Assembly: GCA_038317345.1 (NCBI GenBank)
Contig: JBBQBH010000010.1
Coordinates: forward strand, 339-64,338
Direction: 5' to 3'
Length of the DNA stretch: 64,000 nucleotides
Source of the DNA: Solirubrobacterales bacterium
Lineage (GTDB): Bacteria; Actinomycetota; Thermoleophilia; Solirubrobacterales; 70-9
Numbering within the stretch: position 1 is the first letter of the stretch; the number at the start of each line of letters is the position of its first letter. Below, piece by piece: positions 2,729 through 46,162 of this stretch. Below the pieces are notes generated by a model. That model made no database searches and was not told the origin of the DNA. It saw nothing but the letters and a program-made list of their open reading frames with translations. The position numbers were made by a program, and so were the translations under genes.

Positions 2729-2801
2729 TGGAGCCAGCCGGGCTCGAACCGGCGACCTCCCGGATGCAAACCGGACGCTCTTCCAACTGAGCTATGGCCC
2801 C
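2729..2801 (-). tRNA. tRNA-Ala (anticodon UGC)
   Basis: The reverse complement GGGGCCATAGCTCAGTTGGAAGAGCG...CCGGTTTGCATCCGG...GGTTCGAGCCCGGCTGGCTCCA folds as a cloverleaf. It has the G3:U70 Ala identity pair, anticodon loop UUUGCAU and a GGTTCGAGC T-arm. CCA is not encoded. Confidence 0.93.
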
Positions 2802-6863: not shown

Positions 6864-6936
6864 GGGGCTATAGCTCAGTTGGAAGAGCGCCTGGATCGCA
6901 CCCAGGAGGTCGCCGGTTCGAGTCCGGCTAGCTCCA
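6864..6936 (+). tRNA. tRNA-Ala (anticodon CGC)
   Basis: GGGGCTATAGCTCAGTTGGAAGAGCGCCTGGATCGCACCCAGGAGGTCGCCGGTTCGAGTCCGGCTAGCTCCA folds as a cloverleaf with G3:U70 and anticodon loop AUCGCAC. CCA is not encoded. Confidence 0.93.
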
Positions 6937-21851: not shown

Positions 21852-22973
21852 TTATCGGCGCTCCGACGCCAGTAGCTCTTCGTAGAGGCTCAATGTGTCG
21901 GCGGCGATTCGATCCCAGGAGAACGGGCCCTCGGCCGCACGGCGCGCCGCCGCCGCGAGCTCGGAGCGGGCCGCCTCGTCATCGACGAGCTCGGCCAATG
22001 CCTGAGCGAGCGCCGCTGGGTTCTCGGGCGGGACGATCCGGGCCGCCCCATGCTCGCTGGCCAGCTCCGGGAAGCCGCCGACCGCGGACAGCACCATCGG
22101 CTTGCCGAAGGCGAGCGCCGTGTAGACGACGCCCGAGTGCTCGACGTCGCGGTAGGGCAGCACGACGAGGTCGGCGCGCCGAAAGTAGGCGGGGATCTCG
22201 GGGTCGGTGATGAAGCGGGGCACGAAACGGACCGTGCCGCCCGCCGACTCGGCGAGCCGGCGAAGCGGCTCGACCGGCATCCGGGGGTTGCCGACAATCC
22301 ACAGCTCAGCCCCCTGCACCGACCGAAACGCCTCTAACAGGGTGTCGATCCCCTTGTAGGGGCGCAGCAGCCCGAAGAAGAGGATCACCGGGCCCTCGGC
22401 GTCGCGCAGCTCGGCCGGCAGCGGTTCTTCCTCCGGCAGCCTGGATAGGTAGTCGAAGGCACCGTGGTTGATGACGCGCACGCGGGTCGGCTCGACGCCG
22501 ACCTCCTCCTCGAGCCGGCGCGCGCCGTGGCGCGAGTGCGCCACGACTGCGTCCATGCGACCGAAGACGCGCCGCGCGGTCGCGAGCTGGCTGCGGCTGG
22601 GCTGCGGCGGAAGCACGTAATGCGCGGTCATCACCCGCGGGCGCAGCGGCGGCAACAGCAGCGCGTCCAGACCGGGCACCGTCAGCCACTGGTAGTGGAT
22701 GACGTCGGCATCGGCAGAGCGCCGGAAGCGCAGCATGTCGGGGACGTGCTCGGCGAGCTTGAAGACGCGCCTGGCCGGGGTGTCGAGGCCACGCCCCGCG
22801 GCTCGCCTATAGAAGCGCTCCGAGACCTCATATCCCTGCGGCTGCGGAGTGGGGCCGTAAAGAAAGCGGCTGGTGACCAGCTCGACTTCGGCGCCGGCAC
22901 GAGCGAGGGCGGCGGCCAGCGCGTGGTCGTAGGGCGGCGTGAAGGCCGACGGGTCGACGAGCTGCACTCGCAT
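21852..22973 (-). CDS. Family 4 (GT-B) glycosyltransferase
   Basis: C-terminal GT1/GT4 signature LVVLPYRDVEHSGVVYTALAFGKPMVLSAVGGFPEL. The ATG at 22973 is overlapped by the stop of the 54-codon ORF (TGATG). Confidence 0.85.
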   Translation of the reverse strand: MRVQLVDPSAFTPPYDHALAAALARAGAEVELVTSRFLYGPTPQPQGYEVSERFYRRAAGRGLDTPARRVFKLAEHVPDMLRFRRSADADVIHYQWLTVPGLDALLLPPLRPRVMTAHYVLPPQPSRSQLATARRVFGRMDAVVAHSRHGARRLEEEVGVEPTRVRVINHGAFDYLSRLPEEEPLPAELRDAEGPVILFFGLLRPYKGIDTLLEAFRSVQGAELWIVGNPRMPVEPLRRLAESAGGTVRFVPRFITDPEIPAYFRRADLVVLPYRDVEHSGVVYTALAFGKPMVLSAVGGFPELASEHGAARIVPPENPAALAQALAELVDDEAARSELAAAARRAAEGPFSWDRIAADTLSLYEELLASERR

Positions 22974-23137
22974 CAGATGAGTGATGCCACGGCAACGTGC
23001 GCCTGGGGGCGCGCGTGGCCGAGCAGATCGAGGATGGAGGGCGCGAAGTGTGCTTGTTGCACTCGAGCGCCCGAAGAGGATGAGATGCGAAGCGCCACGC
23101 GCGTAATCCAGGCGTGCGGGGTCGTGGGGTTACTCAT
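22973..23137 (-). CDS. Possible 54-aa ORF coincident with palindromic element copy 1
   Basis: The ATG at 23137 lies 8 nt after a GATAAT hexamer, and the stop TGA overlaps the GT4 ATG. The peptide MSNPTTPHAWITRVALRISSSSGARVQQAHFAPSILDLLGHARPQAHVAVASLI is 37/54 identical to the ORF at 43292-43456. The plus strand has an equally long ORF, so coding is uncertain. Confidence 0.3.
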   Translation of the reverse strand: MSNPTTPHAWITRVALRISSSSGARVQQAHFAPSILDLLGHARPQAHVAVASLI

Positions 23138-23139
23138 CT
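22975..23139. repeat. 165-bp imperfect palindromic element, copy 1 (ERIC/Correia/MITE-like or structured RNA)
   Basis: Gapless ~79% identity by hand alignment to 43294-43458. Termini are AGATGAGT...ACTCATCT, and the internal stems CGCCTGG/CCAGGCG, CGCGTGGC/GCCACGCG, GGGCGC/GCGCCC and GTGC/GCAC fold it into one long hairpin. Confidence 0.75.
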
Positions 23140-23162
23140 AGGGCGATTATCGTGAGCGGGCC

Positions 23163-25648: not shown

Positions 25649-27334
25649 CTACGCGGTGGCCTGGGCGGGCGGTGCCGTTGGCCATTCACCCTGTGAGTCC
25701 GCTTCGCCCTGCTCCATCGCGAGTTGGGGTGCAATGGCAAGCGAGCCTCCGATCGAGAGCAGCACCCAGGTGAGGGGGTCCTCGAGGAAGCCGGCGTAGG
25801 CCATCGTGTGGGCTATTAGCGCCAAGAAGCAGGCGAAGACGGCCGCGCGGGCCGCGACCAGCACGACCCGCTCGGCTGAGGGTCCTGTCGTGGAAGGTGG
25901 CGCCCGAAGCCCCGGCATCAGTCCCATGAACCCACGTGCCAGGGTGGCGAAGGCCACCGCGAGCAGGGCCAGGTAGGCGAGGAGGCCGAGCAGGCCCTGC
26001 TCGGCGGCGACGGTGACCGGCTCGGTGTGCGACACGCTCAGTCGCCCGTTGCCTCCGGTTCGGTGCTTCTGGTAGGCGACCGAAAAGGAGCCAGAGCCAT
26101 ATCCCCACAGCGGCCGATCGCCGAACAGCGCGATCCCTTCGCTGACCAGGTTGGCGCGACCGCTGGTGTCCTTGTTGAGGGTGTGCTCGGTTGAGAGGTT
26201 GATCTTCAGCGAGCCCCCGGCGGCGAGCACGAAGGCGACCGCGAGAATCGCTGCGCCGCCGCAGGCGGCAAGCGTCCAACGAGCGCTCCAGCGCAGCGCG
26301 GCCAATGCGGCAAGCCCGACCAGCAGTGCGACGAAGCTCGATTGCGAGAAGGTCGTGATCAGGCCCAGCCACAGCACCGCGACGAGGGAGCCGAGCCAAA
26401 GCACGAGACGGGGGCTGCGCCCCCAAAGCAGCGCGGCGGCGATCGCGGTGATCGTCAGCGCCAGATAACGCCCGAAGATATTGGGGTCCCAGAACAGGGA
26501 GTTGACCCGGAAGTAGGTGTGAAAGTCATTCGACTGGATCACCTCGGGATTCCAGATCAGGTGGCGCGCCGCGTACTCCCAGAAGCCGAAGAGAACGAAG
26601 AGCAGCGCTTCGCCGGCGACCACACCGAGCCCCAACACCAATAGGCGGCGGTCCCAGCGCCATTCGGCCAGCAGGATGAAGGCGAGCGCGAACGGAACGT
26701 AGAAGAAGGCAACGTTCTGAAGGGCGCGGGAGAAGTCCTCGGAGTAGACGGATTGGAGGGCGTAGAGGACGAGGACGGCGGCGAGGACCTTGGGGAGCAG
26801 CGTGATGCGCCCGGCTGCGGGTCCTGTCACGGAGGTCGCGCTCGCGGCCGTGCTCGAACCCTGCGCGCGGTCCGCGACCGCGACCTCCGCACCACCCGCA
26901 GAAGGCGCGTCATGGTGCTCCCCCCATTGGTGCTCCAGCCACTGCCTCCAGGCCACGGCCAGCACTCCGCCGGCGATCACGAGGTAGAGGGGGACAAGGA
27001 GGTTTGCCTCCTGGCCGCCGGCGTGGATCGGGACGCGGAATGGAACCGCGGCGATCACCGCGAGGGGCAGCAGCATCGGGCGGCGGCGGAACAAGGCAGT
27101 CAAGACGGCAACCGCAATCACCGCCACGGCGCCTAGGGCGACGAAACGGGCGACGTGGTCGCGCAGATCGGTGATCTCGGCCGAGTGCCACTGGTCGGCG
27201 AGGATCAGCACCGGGATCAGCACCAAGGCGATCAGCATCGTCGCCGAACGGCGCGGCGACGCCTCCCAGAGCATCGCGGCAGCGGCTGCGAACACCGCCG
27301 CGAACAAGCCCGCCACCGCTAGGACATTCCCCAT
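25649..27334 (-). CDS. O-antigen ligase / Wzy-like polymerase family membrane protein
   Basis: 561-aa polytopic protein with a large loop (RPLWGYGSGSFSVAY, HTEPVTVAAEQGLLGL) resembling the Wzy_C/O-antigen ligase domain. Confidence 0.65.
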   Translation of the reverse strand: MGNVLAVAGLFAAVFAAAAAMLWEASPRRSATMLIALVLIPVLILADQWHSAEITDLRDHVARFVALGAVAVIAVAVLTALFRRRPMLLPLAVIAAVPFRVPIHAGGQEANLLVPLYLVIAGGVLAVAWRQWLEHQWGEHHDAPSAGGAEVAVADRAQGSSTAASATSVTGPAAGRITLLPKVLAAVLVLYALQSVYSEDFSRALQNVAFFYVPFALAFILLAEWRWDRRLLVLGLGVVAGEALLFVLFGFWEYAARHLIWNPEVIQSNDFHTYFRVNSLFWDPNIFGRYLALTITAIAAALLWGRSPRLVLWLGSLVAVLWLGLITTFSQSSFVALLVGLAALAALRWSARWTLAACGGAAILAVAFVLAAGGSLKINLSTEHTLNKDTSGRANLVSEGIALFGDRPLWGYGSGSFSVAYQKHRTGGNGRLSVSHTEPVTVAAEQGLLGLLAYLALLAVAFATLARGFMGLMPGLRAPPSTTGPSAERVVLVAARAAVFACFLALIAHTMAYAGFLEDPLTWVLLSIGGSLAIAPQLAMEQGEADSQGEWPTAPPAQATA

Positions 27335-34321: not shown

Positions 34322-35836
34322 ATGGACGCCCGCTCCACAAGCGCTCAGATGATCGGAACGGTCCTCTCGGGCCGTTATCGGCTCGAGGCCAAGCTCGGCA
34401 GTGGCGGCATGTCGACCGTCTACCTGGCGCGCGACGCGACGCTCGACCGGCAGGTCGCGGTGAAGGTCATGCACCGCGAGATGTCCGAGCAGCCCGAGCA
34501 GCTGGAGCGCTTTCGCCGGGAGGCGCGCGCGGTCGCGAAGCTTTCCCACCCCAACGTCGTGGCGGTGATCGACGCCGGCGAGGACGGCGGCCATCCGTAC
34601 ATCGTCTTCGAGTACGTCGAGGGCGAGAACCTCAAGCAGCGGATCAAGCGGCTCGGGCCCCTGGACCCGCAGGAGGCGCTCGCCTACGCGATCGAGATCG
34701 CCCGCGGCCTCACCGTCGCCCACGCCCGCAAGATGGTGCACCGCGACATCAAGCCGCAGAACGTGCTGATCGATGCCGAGGGGCGCGCCAAGGTGACCGA
34801 CTTTGGGATCGCCCGCCAGCTCGAGCAGCACGGCGTCACCGATACCGGCCGGGTGCTGGGCACGACCGACTACGTCTCGCCCGAGCAGGCGATGGGCCAT
34901 GGCGTCGACCCGCGCTCCGACGTCTACTCGCTTGGGGTCGTTCTCTACGAGATGCTGACCGGCGACGTTCCGTTCAGCGCCGACACCCAGGTCGGGGTGG
35001 CGATGAAGCACGTGAACGAGGAGCTGCCGGACGTGCAGCGGCGCCGCCCCGAGATCTCGGCCGCGACGGCACTGACGATCGAGCGGGCAACGACCAAGGA
35101 CATCTCGAAGCGCTACAAGGGCGTCGGGGAGATGATCGCCGACCTCGAGACCGCTCTCGAGGTCGAGGCGGCGCGGGCCGGATCGACCGAGGGCGAGGCG
35201 ACCACGGTGCTCAAAGCGGTGCGGCCGCGACGGCGATGGCTGCGGGGGCGGGGCTGGCGCTCGCTCGCTGGGGTACTCGGGGTGCTCGCCCTCGCCGCAG
35301 GAGCGATCGCGGCGGTGATGCTGATCTCGAGCGGAAACGTCGGTGGCGGTGGCGGTGCCGTCGCGGGCAAGGAGATCTCCATCCATTCGGCGACCGACTT
35401 CGACCCCGAGGGCGACAACACAGAGGACGGCAGCCTGGTCCATTTGGCGGTCGACGGGGATCCGATCGGAACCGCCTGGACCACCGAGCACTACGACTCC
35501 GACAACTTCGCGGGAACCAAAATCGGGCTCGATCCCGGCGTCGGCATATACGTGAAGACGAACTCCCCCGCGAAGCCGAAGAAGATGGAGGTGCGCTCTC
35601 AGACCCCCGGCTTCAACGCGGAGGTATTCGCCGCCTCGGGCGCGGCGCCGGCCGACATCGGCGGTTGGGGCAACCCGATCGGGACAATCAGCAACGCGGG
35701 CGAACGCCAGCTGATCGCTCTGAAGCCGAACGGAGCGGCGCAGTACTTCCTGCTCTGGTTCACCCGGCTCGGGCCCGCCAAGGACGACCCGCTCCGCTTT
35801 CAGGCGCAGATCTCCGACATCAAGCTGATCGGCTAG
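34322..35836 (+). CDS. Receptor-type Ser/Thr protein kinase with an extracellular beta-rich domain
   Basis: Hanks kinase motifs GSGGMSTVYLA, VAVK, HRDIKPQN, DFG and SPEQ. One TM helix (LAGVLGVLALAAGAIAAVMLI) and a ~170-aa C-terminal ectodomain. The start is set at MDARSTSAQ. Confidence 0.85.
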   Translation: MDARSTSAQMIGTVLSGRYRLEAKLGSGGMSTVYLARDATLDRQVAVKVMHREMSEQPEQLERFRREARAVAKLSHPNVVAVIDAGEDGGHPYIVFEYVEGENLKQRIKRLGPLDPQEALAYAIEIARGLTVAHARKMVHRDIKPQNVLIDAEGRAKVTDFGIARQLEQHGVTDTGRVLGTTDYVSPEQAMGHGVDPRSDVYSLGVVLYEMLTGDVPFSADTQVGVAMKHVNEELPDVQRRRPEISAATALTIERATTKDISKRYKGVGEMIADLETALEVEAARAGSTEGEATTVLKAVRPRRRWLRGRGWRSLAGVLGVLALAAGAIAAVMLISSGNVGGGGGAVAGKEISIHSATDFDPEGDNTEDGSLVHLAVDGDPIGTAWTTEHYDSDNFAGTKIGLDPGVGIYVKTNSPAKPKKMEVRSQTPGFNAEVFAASGAAPADIGGWGNPIGTISNAGERQLIALKPNGAAQYFLLWFTRLGPAKDDPLRFQAQISDIKLIG

Positions 35837-38728: not shown

Positions 38729-40210
38729 CTACTGTCCTTCACTGAGGATCGTCTCCATCACCGCGCGGGTGATCGGGCCGGCGACCTGGGCGCCGAAGCT
38801 CGAGGTGCACTCGATCGTCGCCGCTACCGCGATCTTCGGGTTGTCGGCCGGGGCGAAGCCGATGAACCAGGCCTGGTTCGGAAGCGAGCACCCCGCTCGC
38901 CCGCTGCCCAGCTCGGCGGTTCCAGTCTTCCCGGCGACGCGCAGCGAGGAGGGAAAAACACCGGCCGCGGTGCCGTCATTGACCACGTTCTGCATCATGT
39001 CGTTGAGCTCGGTCGCGGTCTGGGGCTTCATCACCTGCGACTGCACGGTCGGGTTCATGCGCTTAACGGTGCGGCCGTCTGGGTCGACGACGCGGTCCCA
39101 GAGCTGCGGCCTCATCAGCTCGCCGCCGTTGGCAACCGTCGACGCAACCTCCGCCATCTGCAGCGGCGTGACCGAGAGGCGCTCCTGCCCGATTGCGACG
39201 CGGCCGATGTCGATCGCGTCGCCCGGGCCGAGCAGGTGGCCGTTCTCCTTCACGCCGCTGGTCGCCAGCTCGTCGCTGGGCAGGTCGATCTGGGGCGGAG
39301 AGTTGAAGCCGAAGCGGTCCATGTACTGGTACATCGTCGAGGTGCCGACCTTCTCCCCCACCTGCGCGAAAACGGTGTTGACCGAGTTGGTGAGCGCGTC
39401 GGTGAGCGAGATCGAGCCGAACTGCTCGCCGCCCGCGTTGGAGAGCGGAACGCCCTCGATCGGGATCGGCGAGCGGCCGTTGATCACCGAGTCGGGGGTG
39501 AACTTGCCGGTGTCGAGCGCCGCCGTAGCGGTCACGACCTTGAAGGTCGAGCCGGGGGCGTAGCCGCTCTGGGTAGCTCGGTCGAACAGCGGCGAACCGG
39601 CTTCCTTGTTGAGCTGGGCGAAGTGATTGGGGACCTGGTTGGGGTCGTAGGGCGGTTGGCTGACCAGGGCGCGGACCTTTCCGGTCTGCGGCTCGATCGC
39701 CACCACCGCACCCGTCCGCCCCGCGAGCTGCTCCAGTGCGACCCGCTGCGCGGCGGGATCGATCGAGGAGACGATGTTGTCGCCCTGCTGGCGTTGGCCC
39801 TGGAGCTGGTCGAGGATCGAGGTGAACTCGGACTTGTTGCCGACCAGCTCGTCGTTGTGGTAGCGCTCGAACCCGGCCTGGCCGAGGTCGAGGAAGCTGT
39901 AGCCGATCGGATGCCCGAACAGGCTGCCTTCGGGGTAGTGACGCACATAGAAACGGCTGGACCCCCTGCCTTCCCTGGTCGAGCGAGCAATCACCGAGCC
40001 GTCGTCGGCGAAGATCGTTCCGCGGTGGACCTGCAGCTCCTCGAGCAGCGGGCGCCGGTTGGCGCGCTTGTCCTTCAGCGCTTGGGCGTCGAACACGGCC
40101 CAGTAGGAGGTGAAGCCGATCAGCACCGCGAACATCAGCACGATCAGCCCGTACAGCTTTGCGACCTGGGCGTTCACAGCACACCCACTGGTTCGCGCTC
40201 GGCCCCGCAC
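38729..40210 (-). CDS. pbpA: Class B penicillin-binding protein (PbpA-type transpeptidase)
   Basis: SxxK (STFK), SxN (LSNAG) and KTG (KTGTA) motifs. The GTG at 40210 follows AAGGAG by 5 nt. An alternative GTG at 40177 (VNAQVAKLYG...) would give a shorter tail. Confidence 0.88.
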   Translation of the reverse strand: MRGRARTSGCAVNAQVAKLYGLIVLMFAVLIGFTSYWAVFDAQALKDKRANRRPLLEELQVHRGTIFADDGSVIARSTREGRGSSRFYVRHYPEGSLFGHPIGYSFLDLGQAGFERYHNDELVGNKSEFTSILDQLQGQRQQGDNIVSSIDPAAQRVALEQLAGRTGAVVAIEPQTGKVRALVSQPPYDPNQVPNHFAQLNKEAGSPLFDRATQSGYAPGSTFKVVTATAALDTGKFTPDSVINGRSPIPIEGVPLSNAGGEQFGSISLTDALTNSVNTVFAQVGEKVGTSTMYQYMDRFGFNSPPQIDLPSDELATSGVKENGHLLGPGDAIDIGRVAIGQERLSVTPLQMAEVASTVANGGELMRPQLWDRVVDPDGRTVKRMNPTVQSQVMKPQTATELNDMMQNVVNDGTAAGVFPSSLRVAGKTGTAELGSGRAGCSLPNQAWFIGFAPADNPKIAVAATIECTSSFGAQVAGPITRAVMETILSEGQ

Positions 40211-40235
40211 AATGCTCCTTTGCTGAGCCTCGCGC

Positions 40236-41600
40236 TCACGACGGTAGGGACTCGCCGTCGGGAGCGCCGATGAGCTGGCGGCGGGCGCGGTCGGAGATCA
40301 GCAGCAGCAGGGCCAGCAGCACGAAGTTGGCGACGATCGAGCTGCCGCCGTAGCTGACGAACGGCAGGGTGACCCCGGTCAGCGGTATCACCCTCGTCAC
40401 CCCGCCGATGATCACGAATGCCTGGATCGCGAACACGGCGGTCAACCCGGTGGCAAGCAGCTTCGAGAAGCCGTCGCTGGCGATGATCGCGGTCTTGAAG
40501 CCGCGGGCGGCGATCAGCAGATAGATCAGGCAGACCGCCGAGGCGCCGAACAGACCCAGCTCGTCGACGATCAGGGCGTAGATCGTGTCTGTCTGGGCGG
40601 CTGGCAGAAGCGCAACCGGTGGATGGCTGCCGGGAATGAACAGCAGCGATTGCCCGAACCCCTGTCCGAACAGGCCGCCGTCAGCCTGGGCGAAGATCGA
40701 CTGCAACACCTGGTAGCCGGACTGCTGGGGATGCTGGTAAGGGTCGAGCCAGACGTCGACGCGCTCGTGCACGTGAGGCACGGTGTTGGCGAAGAACCAG
40801 GCGCCGACCAGGAACAGCGCCATCCCGATCACCACGAACGAGAAGCGCCCGGTGGCGACGTAGAGCAGCGCCAGAATCGCCGCGAAGAACATCAGCGAGC
40901 TGCCGAGGTCGCGGATGTAGACGAGCATGAACATCGAGGCGCCCCAGATCACCAGCAACGGCCCGAGGTGCTTGAGCGGTGGCAACGTGATCCCCGCGAT
41001 GCGGCGCGCTCCCACGATCAGCACCTCGCGATGCTCGCGCAGGTAACTGGCCAGGAAGATGACGATGCAGATCTTCGAGAACTCTGCAGGCTGGAACGAG
41101 ACCGAGCCGATCTTCACCCCAAGATAGGCGCCGTTGACCTGCTGTCCGATGCCGGGCAGCCGGGGCGCGAGCAGCAGCGCGATTCCGAGGGTGGCGATCA
41201 GGTAGCGGTAGCGCTCCAGCAGCTCGTAGTCGCGCAGGAAGTGGATTGTGAGGGCGAAGAGGAGGAGGCCGAGGACGAACCAGTTGGCCTGGTCGCGGGC
41301 CAGGGTCTCGTCGATTCGGTAGATGACGATCAGCCCGAAGGCGGCGAGCAGCGCCATCAGCGGGAATAGGTAGGGATCCGCATAGGGCAGCCGAGCCCGC
41401 AGATAGAGGTGGCCGGCGACGCAGATGGCCAGGAAGTAGCCGCCGTAGAGGATGCTGAGGTTGCCGAAGCGGGTCCCGCCCTGGATGAACACGGCCGTGA
41501 ATCCGGCGGTGAGCAGCAACGCCACCGGCACCAGCGCGATCAGCTCGCGGTTGCGGGCGCTTCTCATATCAACACTTGTTCGCGCTCGGCCCGTGGCCAA
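40236..41600 (-). CDS. rodA: SEDS-family peptidoglycan polymerase RodA/FtsW
   Basis: Polytopic FtsW/RodA/SpoVE protein with blocks SFQPAEFSKI and GVTLPFVSYGGSS. An alternative ATG at 41567 is possible. Confidence 0.88.
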   Translation of the reverse strand: MATGRARTSVDMRSARNRELIALVPVALLLTAGFTAVFIQGGTRFGNLSILYGGYFLAICVAGHLYLRARLPYADPYLFPLMALLAAFGLIVIYRIDETLARDQANWFVLGLLLFALTIHFLRDYELLERYRYLIATLGIALLLAPRLPGIGQQVNGAYLGVKIGSVSFQPAEFSKICIVIFLASYLREHREVLIVGARRIAGITLPPLKHLGPLLVIWGASMFMLVYIRDLGSSLMFFAAILALLYVATGRFSFVVIGMALFLVGAWFFANTVPHVHERVDVWLDPYQHPQQSGYQVLQSIFAQADGGLFGQGFGQSLLFIPGSHPPVALLPAAQTDTIYALIVDELGLFGASAVCLIYLLIAARGFKTAIIASDGFSKLLATGLTAVFAIQAFVIIGGVTRVIPLTGVTLPFVSYGGSSIVANFVLLALLLLISDRARRQLIGAPDGESLPS

Positions 41601-41622
41601 GCTCTTTTCAAGAGCCTCGCGC

Positions 41623-42795
41623 TCACGGGGATGGCAACGCTCCCTCGCTGCGCTCGAGATCCTCGATCAGCGAGACGGCGTCGCTGCGCGAACGCAGCTC
41701 GTGGCCGGTCACCGAGCCCCGCCGGTCCTTGGGCACCGAGCTGGTCTGGATCGGGCTCGCGTAGCGCTCCTCGTAGAGGCTGATGCCGAACGGCAGGTCG
41801 TAGGGCAGGCCGCGGTAGAGCGCCACACGCCCGGCGTCGTCGGTGCCCAGGAACCAGATCTGGCGGTTGCCGTACCAGGCCCCGAACCCGACCGCGCCCA
41901 GCACCAGCAGCACCGCGAGCACCTTGGCGGCCCGTTTCAGCGCCCGCCTCCCTCGCGGCACCTCGGCCCGCGCTCGAGCCTCGGCGGCCGCGACCCGGCG
42001 CACCTCGTCGCCACGCAGCCCCTCCGCCTCGGCCGCGGGCCCGACCAGAGTCGGGTGCTCGGGCCCGGGGGCCGGCGCGCCGACCTCCTCGAGCTTGAAG
42101 GCGACCGCGGTGATGTTGTCGCGCCCCCCGGCCCGGTTGGCCTCCGCGACGAGGGCACGCACGGCCGCATCGAGGCTGGTCGAGGAGAGAAGGATCTTGG
42201 TGATCTGCTCTTCCCCGATCATCGTTGTGAGGCCGTCGGAGCAGACCAGGTAGACGTCCCCGGGGCGTGCCGGGACCGTGCGGAGGTCGGGCTCGACCTC
42301 TTCGTCGGGGCCGAGCGCCCGGGTGATGATTGAGCGCTGCGGGTGCTCCTCGGCCTGCTGGTCGGTGAGCTGTCCCTTGCGGCGCAGCTCCTCGACCAGC
42401 GAATGGTCCTGGGTCAGCCGCTCCAGCTTCCCGTCGCGCAGCAGATAGGCGCGGCTGTCGCCGACATGTCCGATCGCCACCTCGTCGCGCTCGGGAGCGA
42501 CGATCACCGCGGTGAGCGTCGTTCCCATGCCGGCGTGGCTCTCGTCGCTGGCGGCGTGCTCGTGAATCTCGCGGTTGGCCGACTTGAAGACCTCCCGCAG
42601 GGCGTCCTCGGGACCGGCGGGGAGCTCGCGGTCGAACGCCTCCGCGGCGATCCGCGAAGCAACCTCGCCGGCCTGGGCGCCCCCCATGCCGTCGGCGACC
42701 ACGAACACCGGCGCCCTCACGTAGTAGGAGTCCTCGTTGGCCCGGCGCTGGCGGCCGGTGTCGGTGCGGTATGCCTGGTCGGCGATCCTCAGCAT
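41623..42795 (-). CDS. pstP: PP2C-family Ser/Thr phosphatase PstP with C-terminal TM segment
   Basis: PP2C motifs RRANEDSYYV, VADGMGG and DNITAV, followed by a TM helix and an extracellular tail. Confidence 0.9.
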   Translation of the reverse strand: MLRIADQAYRTDTGRQRRANEDSYYVRAPVFVVADGMGGAQAGEVASRIAAEAFDRELPAGPEDALREVFKSANREIHEHAASDESHAGMGTTLTAVIVAPERDEVAIGHVGDSRAYLLRDGKLERLTQDHSLVEELRRKGQLTDQQAEEHPQRSIITRALGPDEEVEPDLRTVPARPGDVYLVCSDGLTTMIGEEQITKILLSSTSLDAAVRALVAEANRAGGRDNITAVAFKLEEVGAPAPGPEHPTLVGPAAEAEGLRGDEVRRVAAAEARARAEVPRGRRALKRAAKVLAVLLVLGAVGFGAWYGNRQIWFLGTDDAGRVALYRGLPYDLPFGISLYEERYASPIQTSSVPKDRRGSVTGHELRSRSDAVSLIEDLERSEGALPSP

Positions 42796-42806: not shown

Positions 42807-43286
42807 CTAGTCACCCGGTTCGAAGCGGAACTCGGTGTCGCCGATCCTGATCAGATCGCCAGCCACCAGCTCCGCCTCCCCGGCGAGGACCTCGTCGTTG
42901 AGCAGCGTGCCGTTGGTCGACTTGAGGTCCTCGACATAGAAATGGCCACGGTGCGCGTAGATCCTGGCGTGTAGGCCGGAGGCGTAGCGGTCCTCGATCT
43001 GAACGTCCGCCTCGACCGAGCGACCGATCGACAGTCCCCCGAAGAGATCGAAGCGCGAGCCAGCCTTCAGCCCGCCGCCGCGTTCGACCACCAGCCAGCC
43101 CTCCTCGGAGGAGGAGCCGCCATTACCGTCCATAAGCGGCGCTCCGTGCAGTCCCGTGGCATCGGGTGCGGGCGCCGCCGTGCCTCGCAGGTCCTTGAGC
43201 GCGCTGCGCGCGATCCAGAGCAAGAACAGGTAGAGGACGGCGATGAAGCCGAACTTGAGCCCAACCGAGATCGGCTCGTAGTCCAC
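42807..43286 (-). CDS. fhaB: FHA-domain protein FhaB/FipA (membrane-anchored)
   Basis: N-terminal TM helix (GLKFGFIAVLYLFLLWIA) and a C-terminal FHA domain (SIGRS...VQIEDRYASGLHARI...DLKSTNGTLLND). The start is taken as the GTG at 43286 (VDYEPIS). Confidence 0.85.
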   Translation of the reverse strand: MDYEPISVGLKFGFIAVLYLFLLWIARSALKDLRGTAAPAPDATGLHGAPLMDGNGGSSSEEGWLVVERGGGLKAGSRFDLFGGLSIGRSVEADVQIEDRYASGLHARIYAHRGHFYVEDLKSTNGTLLNDEVLAGEAELVAGDLIRIGDTEFRFEPGD

Positions 43287-43291
43287 TGGCC

Positions 43292-43456
43292 CTAGATGGT
43301 CGATGCCACGGCGGCGTGCGCTTGGGGGCGCGCGTCGTCGAGCAGGTCGAGGATCCAGGCCGCGACGTGTGCGACCAGCACACAAGCGGCCGAGGACGAA
43401 GAGATGCGACGCGCGACGCGCGACCTCCAGGCGTGCGGAGTCGTGGCGTCGCCCAT
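43292..43456 (-). CDS. Possible 54-aa ORF coincident with palindromic element copy 2
   Basis: The ATG lies 4 nt after the fhaA stop, and the TAG stop lies 5 nt before the fhaB GTG. Peptide: MGDATTPHAWRSRVARRISSSSAACVLVAHVAAWILDLLDDARPQAHAAVASTI. A plus-strand 54-codon ORF also exists. Confidence 0.3.
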   Translation of the reverse strand: MGDATTPHAWRSRVARRISSSSAACVLVAHVAAWILDLLDDARPQAHAAVASTI

Positions 43457-43458
43457 CT
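43294..43458. repeat. 165-bp imperfect palindromic element, copy 2, filling the fhaA-fhaB junction
   Basis: Same length as, and gapless alignment to, 22975-23139. Termini are AGATGGTCG...CGCCCATCT, flanked by TA on both sides. Stems are CGCTTGG/CCAGGCG, CGCGTCG/CGACGCG, GGCCGC/GCGGCC and GTGTGC/GCACAC. Confidence 0.75.
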
Positions 43459-43460
43459 AA

Positions 43461-44231
43461 CTACTGCTCGATGTCGAAGCTGAACGTGGAAGTGCCGAGG
43501 GTGACTTCGTCGCCGGGACGCAAGCGGGAGGAGGACACCTGACGCCCGTTGATCTTGACGCCGTTGGTGGAGCCGAGATCGGCGATATGCCAGTCGCCTG
43601 TCTCGGCCCGGCGCAGCTCCGCGTGGTGGCGCGAGACGTTGGGGTCCCGGAGCACGCAATCGCTGTCCTTGGAGCGCCCGATCACCGCCTTCGGCCCGTC
43701 GAGCACGTAACGACGATCGCCGATCGAGACGATCGCTCGGGTCGCGACCAGGGCGGCCTCTGGCCGCTTGCTCGGCTTCGCCTTCTCCCGCTCGCGCACC
43801 GCCGAGTAGACCATCGTGTGGCCCTCTTCGCCCTGGCTGGGAGCCTCGCCCTCGTGCGAAGCCGGCTTGACGAGCCGGGTCTGGATGCCGAACTCGCCGA
43901 GCCGTAGCCGCTCGTCGGTCTGAAAGTCGACCGCCGGCCTCGTCAGCAGGTCATAGCTGCGCCGCCGGGCATGCTCGAGGAGGTAGCCGGACAGCTCCTG
44001 TTCGAGCGAGCGCTCATAGCCCTCCAGCTTCGAGCGGTCCTGCTTGGAGAGGTAGACGGTGTACTCGTTCGGCACGTAGATCCGCGAAACCGAGGCGGTC
44101 TTGTGGGCATCCATTTCCTTGGCCAGCTTGCGGGCGAGCTCGACAGGCTGCACCTCGGAGGAAAACGCGCGGCTGAATACGCCCTCGACGAGGCCTTCGA
44201 TCCGTGCTTCGAGGTTGCGCAGGACGCTGAT
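43461..44231 (-). CDS. fhaA: FHA-domain protein FhaA (DUF3662-type N-domain plus C-terminal FHA)
   Basis: N-domain LRNLEARIEGLVEGVFSRAFSSEVQPVELARKLAKEM and a C-terminal FHA domain (VIGRSKDSDCVLRDPNVSRHHAEL...DLGSTNGVKING). The start is inferred at ATC 44231, 7 nt after AAGGAG, because no canonical start lies nearby. Confidence 0.8.
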   Translation of the reverse strand: MSVLRNLEARIEGLVEGVFSRAFSSEVQPVELARKLAKEMDAHKTASVSRIYVPNEYTVYLSKQDRSKLEGYERSLEQELSGYLLEHARRRSYDLLTRPAVDFQTDERLRLGEFGIQTRLVKPASHEGEAPSQGEEGHTMVYSAVREREKAKPSKRPEAALVATRAIVSIGDRRYVLDGPKAVIGRSKDSDCVLRDPNVSRHHAELRRAETGDWHIADLGSTNGVKINGRQVSSSRLRPGDEVTLGTSTFSFDIEQ

Positions 44232-44292
44232 GGCGGGGCTCCTTGGCAGGGGTGGGCGCAGTCCGCGGCGCGAGGACGCCGCGCCCGAAATC

Positions 44293-45984
44293 CTACGAAA
44301 GTGTCGCTTCTCGACTGGCTTCCCGTAGCGGTGCCGGATCGGGTCCGAGCGATATCCCCCGTGGCTCCGCCGCGCCCCTGGCGCGCCAGACGACCACCGT
44401 GGCGACGACCGCGAGCACGGCCGCGGCCAACACCCCGGGCGACGGACCGACGCTGCCGGCCTGCAACCGCAGGGCCGCAACCAGCGCCGCGACCCACACA
44501 AGGGCGCCCAGAAGGTCGAGGGCGGGATTGCGCCCACGCACGACCAGGCCGAGTGCCAGCGCACCCAGCGACCACAGCGCGAGACCGAATATGAAGGTGG
44601 GATCGACCGCTAGCGGAAGCAGCAGATCGCGCGCGGCCTGCCCGGCCGACTGCTGCCATCCCGCGGGCGCGACGTGCTGCGGACCAAAGAGGAGCTTGCG
44701 GTCAAGGACGGACTCGGCGATCGCCACCCAGGCGTAGCCCGCAGCGCCCAGCACAAGGCGGTCGCGAGCCCGCCCCGCCAGTCCGGCGAGCGCCGGGTAG
44801 ATCGGTGCGGCACCCGCCAAGCCGAGTAACGGCGACGCGGCGGGCAAGGTCAGGGCGCGGCCGCCTGCGCCGAGCAGCAGAACCGGCGGCAGAGTCAGCA
44901 CCCCGACCACGAGTGCCGCGCCGGGGCGACCCGCGGGCCCCGCCAACCAGGCGACCAGCCCAGCGGCGCCCAGCAGGTAACCGAGTCGAGACCACAGAAA
45001 GGTCAGCAGTCCGGCGGCAATCGGGAGCAGGTAGGCCCAGGCCGGGCCGCTGTTCGGGGTGAAGATCATCGCCGCACCGGTCAGCGCCGCGACCGCTCCG
45101 GCCGAGGCCAGCTCCGCCGGGCCGCCGCCGGCCAGCGCCCCCATCGCGGTGGCCAGAGATGGGCGTCGACGCCGGGGCCGTGGCACGCTGCGGCCAGCCT
45201 CGAGGTCGGGCAGCGTGTCCTCGACCGCCGCGGCGAGCTCCTCGAGCGGGGGGCGCAGCTCCGGGTCGGCCTCCAGGCAGGCGTCGATCGCATCGCAAAG
45301 CTCAGTCGGGAGGTCGGGGCGCATCTCGGCAAGCGGCGACACCGGCTCGCCGATCGCCCGCGCCGTGGCCGCCGGCGTCGAGCGGGCATTGGGGTTCTCG
45401 CCGCTCCATGCTTCGTAGAGGGTGAGCGCAAGCGAGTAGACGTCGGCCGGCGGGCCGGCGTCATCCCCCTCGGCCTGCTCCGGCGCCATGTAGGCGAGCG
45501 TGCCGACTATGTCGCCGGTGGCGGTGATCCCAGCTCCATCGAGGACGCGGGCGATCCCGAAGTCCATCAGCTTGGCGCGTCGATCGTCGGCGGCGAGCAG
45601 GACGTTCTGCGGCTTGATGTCGCGGTGCACGACGCCGCGCGAGTGGGCGTGCTCCAGCGCGTCGCTGAGATCGGCGGCGGCCTCCCCGACGTCGCGGTCC
45701 GAGAGCAGCCCCTGACGTTGCATCTCAGTCAGCGTCGCGCCGTCGATCAGCTCACTGACCAGATAGGCGCTGCGGCCGTCCTCTCCAAGCTCGTAGAGGG
45801 TGAGGACGCTGGGGTGGTTGAGGCGAGCGACGGCCTGCGCCTCGCGCATCACCCGCTCCACTGGCTGACCGCCCAGGTCGATCACCTTGACCGCCACGTC
45901 GCGCTCAAGGCGCTCGTCCCATGCCCGATAGACCGTGCCGAACCCGCCGCTTCCCAACCGCTCGCGGACCTTGAAACGGCTCAT
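44293..45984 (-). CDS. Ser/Thr protein kinase fused to a polytopic (~8-9 TM) C-terminal membrane domain
   Basis: Hanks motifs GSGGFGTVYRA, VAVK, HRDIKPQN, DFG and APEQ, then ~300 aa of Gly/Ala/Leu-rich TM helices. The start is set at MSRFKV (45984); upstream in-frame ATGs exist. Confidence 0.8.
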   Translation of the reverse strand: MSRFKVRERLGSGGFGTVYRAWDERLERDVAVKVIDLGGQPVERVMREAQAVARLNHPSVLTLYELGEDGRSAYLVSELIDGATLTEMQRQGLLSDRDVGEAAADLSDALEHAHSRGVVHRDIKPQNVLLAADDRRAKLMDFGIARVLDGAGITATGDIVGTLAYMAPEQAEGDDAGPPADVYSLALTLYEAWSGENPNARSTPAATARAIGEPVSPLAEMRPDLPTELCDAIDACLEADPELRPPLEELAAAVEDTLPDLEAGRSVPRPRRRRPSLATAMGALAGGGPAELASAGAVAALTGAAMIFTPNSGPAWAYLLPIAAGLLTFLWSRLGYLLGAAGLVAWLAGPAGRPGAALVVGVLTLPPVLLLGAGGRALTLPAASPLLGLAGAAPIYPALAGLAGRARDRLVLGAAGYAWVAIAESVLDRKLLFGPQHVAPAGWQQSAGQAARDLLLPLAVDPTFIFGLALWSLGALALGLVVRGRNPALDLLGALVWVAALVAALRLQAGSVGPSPGVLAAAVLAVVATVVVWRARGAAEPRGISLGPDPAPLREASREATLS

Positions 45985-46162
45985 GATCACTGTGCCCACC
46001 ACCGCTTCTTTGCCTTCGGGACGCGCCGCCTCAATCCTTGTCGGAGGGCTCGCATTCCCCATCGGAAAGCCAATAGCGCAACGTTTCCTGCGCACCGGCT
46101 GCCCGGGGCGGCATACTCTCCGCGAGGCGAACCCGACCTGGCGACCCTGGGAGACTCACGCC

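Follow-up and report, generated by a model that had tools for sequence, protein, structure and literature searches.

The window analysed here, a 64,000-nt stretch of contig JBBQBH010000010.1 from a Solirubrobacterales bacterium with a G+C content of 68%, contains on its minus strand a conserved actinobacterial cluster in the order Ser/Thr kinase, fhaA (FhaA_N and FHA domains), fhaB (FHA domain), PP2C phosphatase, RodA/FtsW and PBP transpeptidase. This cell-division signalling operon is normally compact and widely conserved, which raises the question of why fhaA and fhaB are separated by an odd gap of 174 nt (43287-43460). A preliminary description of the sequence had reported that the gap is filled by the second of two copies of a palindrome, and the fhaA stop, the fhaB GTG, the spacer length and the palindrome coordinates were all confirmed on the sequence.

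The fhaA-fhaB junction and the two copies in the window

The features at the junction are as follows.

42807..43286, minus strand: fhaB (FHA domain, 159 aa), the downstream gene, with its GTG start at 43284-43286
43292..43456, minus strand: 54-codon ORF of copy 2, with its ATG (43454-43456) 4 nt past the fhaA stop and its TAG (43292-43294) 5 nt ahead of the fhaB GTG
43293..43459, minus strand (the sense strand of the fha operon): element copy 2, a 167-nt imperfect palindrome, TAGATG...CATCTA
43296-43460, plus strand: second 54-codon ORF of copy 2, sharing its third codon positions with the minus-strand ORF
43349..43357, plus strand: purine-rich core repeat 1 of copy 2, GAGGATCCA here and AAGGACGCA in the family consensus, located in an internal loop of the hairpin
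43367..43383, plus strand: apical stem-loop of copy 2, GTGTGC-GACCA-GCACAC, which covaries between subfamilies (helix 5)
43392..43400, plus strand: purine-rich core repeat 2 of copy 2, GAGGACGAA here and GAGGACGCA in the consensus
43461..44564, minus strand: fhaA (FhaA_N and FHA domains), the upstream gene, with its TAG stop at 43461-43463

The true start of fhaA probably lies downstream of 44564, while the fhaB homologues share the same GTGGACTACGAG at their start. Copy 2 is made up of 163 nt (GATG...CATC, 43295-43457) flanked by TA on either side, and is matched over its full length both by nhmmer and by the covariance model described below. The minus-strand ORF was found in the position reported for it between the fhaA stop and the fhaB start, and it is also called at the same junction in four related contigs. 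Core repeat 2 is a direct, not an inverted, repeat of core repeat 1, and the two differ in codon phase.

The other copy lies in the 5' leader of a glycosyltransferase gene, in a divergent region.

21852..22973, minus strand: GT4 glycosyltransferase gene, with a start codon coupled to the ORF of copy 1
22973..23137, minus strand: 54-codon ORF of copy 1, whose TGA shares one base with the GT4 ATG (TGATG)
22974..23140, minus strand: element copy 1, CAGATG...CATCTA

Copies 1 and 2 share 78% identity over 176 nt, and the left end of copy 1 reads CA instead of TA, as had been noted. The products of their ORFs agree in 37 of 54 residues, with 17 codons differing non-synonymously and 10 synonymously; the Ser-Ser-Ser codons singled out in the preliminary description do differ at third positions only, and silently. 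Both copies fold much more stably than their dinucleotide shuffles, with z = -7.9 and -10.4 on the plus strand and z = -3.8 and -7.2 on the minus strand, so that the palindromes are well beyond chance.

A repeat family of Solirubrobacterales

The element is multi-copy. A 19-base pattern common to both copies, searched in one genome per species, retrieved 91 loci, about half of which are chance matches in unrelated taxa; the pattern was exact and lies in the 3' arm (alignment columns 135-154), where conservation is given by construction, and divergent copies are under-sampled by it. Profile searches yielded 41 full-length copies, including the two of the window and three on metagenome contigs. 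The hosts of all 41 are Solirubrobacterales, Thermoleophilia or unclassified Actinomycetota MAGs, and the profile score of every copy on its better strand is about double that on the opposite strand. The interior of the element is approximately 90% conserved across species, and the copies are single 167-nt palindromes, with no tandem arrays of the element.

The covariance model (R1), built from 33 full-length copies, identifies in the window the two known copies and a third match (26829-26890, 27 bits), which was rejected as a family member, being an unrelated G+C-rich hairpin. When applied to 360 kb of related loci, the same model picks up further, more divergent relatives, some of which have entirely different stems with the same ends (CTAG...CTAG; L089, 2824-2991) and a length of about 168 nt. 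These relatives keep two purine-rich stretches, AAGGACGCAGGG and CGAGGACGCAGAG, as a common core. One locus of 8 kb (L080) holds three family members, all on one strand. Searching Rfam 15 at the gathering score and at E<=10 gave no relevant family and only two tRNAs in the window; for the element itself the best-scoring Rfam model, that of a plant miRNA precursor, reaches 22.6 bits against a threshold of 268.

Filled and empty sites

Copy 2 is an insertion: close relatives and a co-occurring strain lack it at this junction. Metagenomes scanned with FhaB gave 80 loci, of which the first 24 junctions were read, and by profile the element is present at the fhaA-fhaB junction in one of the 80 (L104, which is on the same contig as L001). 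In most of the junctions read the spacer is 9-18 nt long and free of the element, among them L095, L096-098, L101, L103 and L105, the FhaB identity of these empty-junction relatives being 95% for L095 and 88-89% for L096-098. Two other junctions (L099 and L100) contain a 35-nt internally deleted mini-hairpin, and one (L102) only the 3' part of the element. The best-matching metagenome run (X1), which holds 83% of the sampled words of the region, contains the filled form together with an empty allele, in which 43293 is joined to 43461 with two other letters between them (net -165 nt).

Two further sites are polymorphic in the same way. Runs X2, X1 and X5 have no element at the site of copy 1 (net -164 nt), while upstream of fhaA one locus (L154) is filled and a close relative (L151) is empty, reading ...ccgTAGgatttt. 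At three sites the net insertion relative to the empty alleles, which come from diverged strains, amounts to 164, 165 and 166 nt. The element has recently moved in at least one genome; near-identical 164-nt copies with unrelated flanks, each reading C-TAGATG...CATCTA-G, are found in L075, L082 and L086, the first two of them on one contig. In run X1 the element is covered about five times as deeply as its flanks.

The fhaA-fhaB gap is thus a recent, polymorphic insertion and no part of the FHA/kinase module, which explains the odd spacer, and the 54-codon ORF should not be named in annotation as a protein of that module. The suggestion that the palindrome is a MITE is supported by the empty sites, the many further copies and the TA/CTAG ends. 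The comparison of filled and empty junctions that had been proposed as its check gave empty sites at the exact fhaA-fhaB junction in close relatives and in the second strain of run X1, and a relative with a non-palindromic protein gene at this junction, which would have spoken against it, was not found.

Orientation and reading frame

Flanking genes were scored as long ORFs with high third-position G+C, with the plus strand of each element defined as in the window. The right-hand (upstream) neighbour is located on the minus strand of the element in 31 of 32 scorable cases, with its stop between -11 and +18 nt from the element end, and random orientation would give such a count with a chance of about 8e-9 (our own arithmetic). 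The minus strand is therefore taken as the mRNA strand. The sole exception among these neighbours is that of copy 1 in the window, and one copy (L007) lies between convergent genes. In 11 of the 31, the element's own TAG is the stop of the upstream gene (at -3). On the other side, 21 left-hand (downstream) neighbours are minus-strand genes starting 0-15 nt from the element end, often with CATCTGATG, where the TGA of the element overlaps the ATG.

The 54-codon ORF is intact in about 34 of the 41 copies, and its frame is broken in three. In a 164-nt subfamily the frame is restored by -1 and -2 indels, with about 30 interior residues changed, while a 30-nt insertion at the apex, present in L003 and in a variant in run X1, is in frame. 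Internally deleted copies (65, 59, 50, 50 and 35 nt) follow the same rule, as five of six deletions are multiples of 3 that keep the ATG-to-stop frame (p ~0.02, also by our arithmetic); little of the ORF is left in the mini copies. The terminal stop is retained as TAG, TAA or TGA, and the two ends diverge unequally, with 13 CA variants at the sense 3' end and 3 mirror-image TG variants at the other. In unpaired columns third codon positions are the more variable (0.80 vs 0.35 bits; Mann-Whitney p = 5e-4), a test which is blind to strand because the third positions of the plus- and minus-strand ORFs coincide; it is the orientation of the neighbouring genes that distinguishes the strands.

These patterns suggest that the frame is conserved and not the peptide. 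Neither of the two 54-codon ORFs has a match in Pfam, and a protein homology search of 5.8 billion sequences with the 54-aa product found three clusters only, all at the fhaA-fhaB junction, and no longer protein sharing its ends. The AGGACGCAG repeats stand in different codon phases, and the core is therefore a nucleic-acid motif, not a peptide motif. On this sequence evidence the ORF would count as a frame to translate through and not as a conserved protein.

Hairpin structure and strand asymmetry

The consensus hairpin, derived from an alignment of 33 sequences, contains 60 pairs, where 97.6% of the 1980 cells are standard pairs and 28 of the 60 pairs have changed on both sides. The observed measures were reached by none of 500 shuffles, and when the partner is slid by 1-3 columns the pairing falls to 31-51%. 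The plus strand folds more stably in all 41 copies (mean -110.6 vs -86.5 kcal/mol), and DNA energy parameters point in the same direction (-57.5 for plus vs -47.3 for minus). Plus-strand pairing includes 224 G.U cells as against 12 A.C cells, the latter being equivalent to G.U on the minus strand; the hairpin of the mRNA strand has about 7 A.C mismatches and is weaker by about 24 kcal/mol. The divergent relatives with other stems show the same strand asymmetry.

A further comparison was made between copies from different species that occupy one and the same site, as judged by a match of the flanks on one side or both. Among single changes 29 keep the plus-strand pairing and 3 the minus-strand pairing, to which 17 compensated double changes are added. 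Compensatory change at resident loci suggests selection at the level of the locus, which would not be expected of a purely selfish element; the same signal could arise through gene conversion or repeated insertion. Taken together, the pairing patterns indicate that purifying selection acts on the hairpin of the strand complementary to the mRNA. Mutational strand bias was considered as the cause of the G.U excess and rejected, as a 10:1 excess of one transition class in the stems of same-site copies was judged too large for it. The sense-strand GC skew of the elements is -0.15, resembling the third-position skew of the host genes.

Current accounts of bacterial MITEs do not lead one to expect pairing conserved on the antisense strand, and this conservation offers a handle on the movement or the function of the element. 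A scan of 43150-43600 for promoter and terminator consensus sequences found none, and the antisense promoter that had been suggested earlier thus has no consensus within the element to stand on. The RNA runs holding the region consist of unstranded contigs with depth 0 over the element and are uninformative.

Ends and candidate mobilising enzyme

The element ends mostly read C-TA-GATG...CATC-TA-G. TA stands beside GATG...CATC at the left end of 24 and the right end of 28 of the 41 copies, and at both ends in 17 copies, while the ends are other than TA in 17 of 41 (left) and 13 of 41 (right). The tetranucleotide CTAG is present at 21 of 41 left and 18 of 41 right ends, as well as in all three recent copies. 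In PMC2170065, which cites Tenzen & Ohtsubo 1991, the target of IS630 is given as TA within CTAG, with duplication of the TA, and the element is similar to IS630/Tc1-mariner elements in the TA at both ends and in the preference for CTAG. The ends fit the proposed IS630-type footprint; the 2-bp duplication itself is consistent with, but not proven by, the net insertions of 164-166 nt, the empty alleles coming from diverged strains.

In the terminal repeat, positions 1-6 and 14-47 are conserved, whereas positions 7-13 are hypervariable between copies and complementary within each. This pattern would run contrary to what is predicted for a TIR bound by a transposase. The element thus differs from IS630/Tc1-mariner elements in a terminal repeat that is not conserved at 7-13 and in a strand-asymmetric structure unexpected for duplex cut-and-paste, and a cut-and-paste dsDNA mechanism would leave the one-strand conservation of pairing unaccounted for.

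No transposase with matching ends was seen within the 8-kb loci. Five loci containing the 3' arm only (L055, L083, L089, L091 and L066) were examined as ends of a longer, autonomous IS and proved to be internally deleted copies, and other pattern matches were rejected as IS ends, being chance matches in coding sequence. An IS630-like partner may be regarded as the leading candidate for the mobilising enzyme, with a strand-specific ssDNA system as its main rival.

Proposed mechanism and alternative explanations

The element is most probably (a probability of about 0.65) a new family of non-autonomous hairpin MITEs of approximately 165 bp from Solirubrobacterales, with a MIRU-like coupled relay ORF. 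As read from the sequence, the element would land on TA, a dinucleotide that is rare in a 68% G+C genome and concentrated in TAG/TAA stops and short spacers, and would therefore end up at gene junctions, where a single orientation would survive, or be made. The mRNA strand would then supply, in order, a TAG stop, an adjacent ATG, an open frame of 54 codons and a stop abutting or overlapping the next start. A ribosome ending fhaA may start again at the ATG of the element ORF, open the hairpin while translating across it, and stop 5 nt ahead of the fhaB GTG, where a further round of initiation would follow. The 165 extra bases would then cost the operon neither its translational coupling nor its protection from polarity. 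The selected structure would be that of the single-stranded plus strand, either as ssDNA during mobilisation or as antisense RNA. The weaker sense hairpin would ease the passage of ribosomes, make the sense orientation tolerable and could explain the single orientation, but it gives no reason for the upkeep of plus-strand pairing. An element of this kind would be an unusually clean natural case of mobile DNA built to be harmless inside operons, with a stop-start leading into an open frame whose own stop falls on the start of the next gene.

Alternatively, the element may be moved as ssDNA by a hairpin-recognising HUH/Y1-type enzyme (cf. REPIN/RAYT and IS200/IS605), or by another strand-specific route, and not by an IS630-like DDE transposase, where the plus-strand hairpin would be the substrate and the CTAGs at the ends would be target tetranucleotide and element end, not a duplication. 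Pairing conserved on one strand only, also with DNA parameters, would fit such a route, as would an element that is one whole hairpin and not two short TIRs, a stem near the tip that varies yet remains complementary, net insertions that leave the 2-bp duplication unfixed, and divergent relatives that share both the asymmetry and the core. This explanation is nevertheless considered rather unlikely, as the conserved REP head GTAG is present at 4 of 41 ends only, the TA/CTAG ends are the classic footprint of IS630 (PMC2170065), no Y1/HUH gene was seen in the loci covered, and ssDNA transposons orient with replication, from which a moderate gene bias at most, and not 31 of 32, would be expected. 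Somewhat less probable again is that the element has been co-opted, or has always served, as a structured nucleic acid on the antisense strand that is useful to the host. It could be a hairpin without a U-tract that stops antisense transcription into operons and is silenced in the sense direction by translation of the ORF; alternatively, the two AGGACGCAG loops could be the centre of an antisense RNA or of a protein-binding motif. The compensated pairs and plus-strand G.U transitions among same-site copies argue for such a role, together with the conserved interior and a core kept in two codon phases by relatives with unrelated stems. Against it, copies are readily lost (empty alleles, remnants and internal deletions), neither a promoter consensus at 43150-43600 nor an Rfam family was found, and the fhaA-fhaB site is empty in most relatives, so that the element is not needed there; moreover, local selection could be mimicked by gene conversion among the ~100 copies or by repeated insertion at the same TA. 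A bolder form of the idea, to which we attach a low probability of the same order as to ssDNA transposition, is that the hairpin is selected at resident loci on the antisense strand while the sense strand is kept translatable, which would make the family a new class of mobile, translation-transparent modules, with the functional form being an antisense RNA or a template-strand ssDNA hairpin around the double AGGACGCAG loop. If true, such modules could insulate against antisense transcription, or feed an undescribed strand-specific, transcription-oriented mobilisation system.

Two further explanations concern the junction itself. The sense-strand hairpin, and not translation of the ORF, might restore coupling by bringing the fhaA stop and the fhaB start together, with re-initiation across the closed stem. 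In most copies the stem does have the upstream stop at one foot and the downstream start at the other, and the minus-strand hairpin is still very stable, yet the in-frame indels, the retained stop and the third-position variability would be left without explanation and pairing is not conserved on the mRNA strand, for which reasons this explanation appears improbable. The least credible, and rejected here, is that of the preliminary description, in which the ORF would be a regular gene for a small protein acting together with the FHA/kinase module. The ORF called at the junction in the four related contigs and the third-position excess of variability are what such a gene would show, but the same element occupies more than 40 unrelated junctions, the fhaA-fhaB junction lacks it in most relatives, one subfamily has a shift of frame in the interior, the mini copies have lost the greater part of the ORF, and non-synonymous differences between copies 1 and 2 exceed synonymous ones. 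With no Pfam match and three protein clusters confined to a single junction, the ORF does not behave as a conserved small-protein family.

Comparison with known repeats

The element agrees with MITEs in general in being short, encoding no transposase and forming a long stem-loop, with many dispersed copies and filled and empty alleles. ERIC/IRU (RU-1) and Correia/NEMIS elements, from enterobacteria and Neisseria, are MITEs of 100-200 bp with a long stem-loop, TA termini, transcribed intergenic sites and filled/empty sites, some families of the ERIC/Correia type carry an ORF, and the orientation of ERIC matters for its effect on mRNA (PMC2229807, PMC2759123). The present element is similar to them in size, long stem-loop, TA termini, intergenic transcribed sites and filled/empty sites. 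In contrast to them, it shares no sequence similarity with these elements, resides in a host of a different phylum, and has one fixed orientation to genes, with its own stop-start and a stop on the codons of its neighbours. It further differs in a frame kept through indels, in pairing conserved on the antisense strand, and in a sub-terminal stem that is hypervariable but complementary, in place of a conserved TIR.

The RPE of Rickettsia and YPAL/RU-2, likewise palindromic and mobile, measure ~100-170 bp and contain an open frame translated along with the genes of the host (PMC2229807), and the element resembles both in being palindromic and mobile with an open frame. RPEs are fused in frame inside protein genes, whereas the element, with a stop preceding its ATG, stays a cistron of its own; YPAL has no TA termini and makes duplications of 3-26 bp, whereas the element is mostly TA-ended. 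REPIN/RAYT systems, which are long-lived, form long hairpins as the element does, but their conserved GTAG (or CGTC) head has a counterpart, as GTAG, at only 4 of 41 sense 5' ends of the element, where the consensus is CTAG, and the element is not built of two short REP hairpins.

The closest described match for the way in which the element works is the MIRU (mycobacterial interspersed repetitive unit), as the element ORF likewise sits on the stop and start codons of co-oriented flanking genes. MIRUs, as Supply et al. reportedly described them in 1997, are units of 46-101 bp that commonly stand in tandem, and they are not known to be long palindromes bounded by TA/CTAG. The element differs from them in unit size and in the lack of tandem repetition, as it is a single 167-nt hairpin in Solirubrobacterales.

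In the literature consulted, no repeat of this kind was found described for Solirubrobacterales or Thermoleophilia. The family is a large, undescribed one in an abundant and mostly uncultured soil lineage, where it will break assemblies and is usable as a strain marker.

Element copies in the fhaA-fhaB operon

A second insertion site of the element, the hairpin of about 167 nt that fills the fhaA-fhaB spacer, is located in the same operon directly upstream of fhaA, where two metagenome contigs carry filled copies (L146 501-657 and L154 511-676), one of which is decayed. This site is empty in many relatives, such as L151. The longest fhaA ORF (43461-44564; 367 aa) shares about 270 nt with the upstream kinase ORF (44293-46095), and the true start of fhaA probably lies a good way downstream of the outer limit of this ORF at 44564. 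Its FhaA_N domain begins only at residue 115, the orthologue in L001 is called as 230 aa, and the 367-aa sequence was absent from the protein collection. A variant of the fhaA-fhaB copy, present in L003 (407-603) and in the best-matching metagenome run X1, contains a 30-nt in-frame insertion at the hairpin apex, which represents 10 additional codons (AAPKARASAKRE), and in X1 a loose end for this variant is at window 43355.

Shortened copies, element ends and divergent relatives

Element copies shortened to 35-65 nt by internal deletions and divergent long hairpins occur in the loci listed below.

Internally deleted copies and divergent hairpins
L055 6092-6156, internally deleted copy
L089 1064-1122, internally deleted copy
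L083 2599-2648, internally deleted copy
L086 1436-1485, internally deleted copy
L099 and L100, upstream of fhaB, internally deleted copies
L089 2824-2991, divergent long hairpin
L080 2243-2412 and 1577-1725, divergent long hairpins
L085 3919-4030, divergent long hairpin

As the shortened copies retain both stem feet and the ATG...stop frame, the series suggests that hairpin-mediated deletion of the element is frequent, with the frame acting as a filter. About nine copies (L080, L040, L087, L092, L037, L010, L084, L029 and L154) have (T)GAGATG in place of TAGATG at the sense 5' end, with TGA as the upstream stop, shifted by one base relative to the frame of the ATG. Such ends are not accounted for by a simple duplication of TA with later single substitutions. 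The divergent hairpins differ in their stems, but have either TA-type ends or the core AAGGACGCAGGG / CGAGGACGCAGAG in common with the element, together with the greater stability of the plus over the minus strand, which suggests a superfamily.

Other repeats and hairpins in the window

A perfect G+C-rich hairpin of 62 nt (26829-26890; CGGAGGTCGCG...CGCGACCTCCG) is located between two minus-strand ORFs; it matches the covariance model of the element weakly (27 bits) and has no sequence homology with the element family. A 75-nt direct repeat (40186-40260 and 41573-41647; 73% identity), whose copies share the sense-strand blocks CGTGAGCGCGAGGCTC and GGCCGAGCGCGAAC, occupies two successive junctions of one operon (rodA/pbpA and pstP/rodA); it may represent a second repeat associated with gene junctions, or else a shared leader. 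The segments 34717-34965 and 45398-45649, 10 kb apart, contain inverted repeats with 70-83% complementarity over 61-130 nt. One arm is inside the Ser/Thr kinase ORF 44293-46095, and the likely source of the repeats is a pair of paralogous kinase genes encoded on opposite strands. Two tRNA genes, at 2729-2801 (minus strand) and 6864-6936 (plus strand), form an inverted pair 4 kb apart and are 88% complementary to one another.
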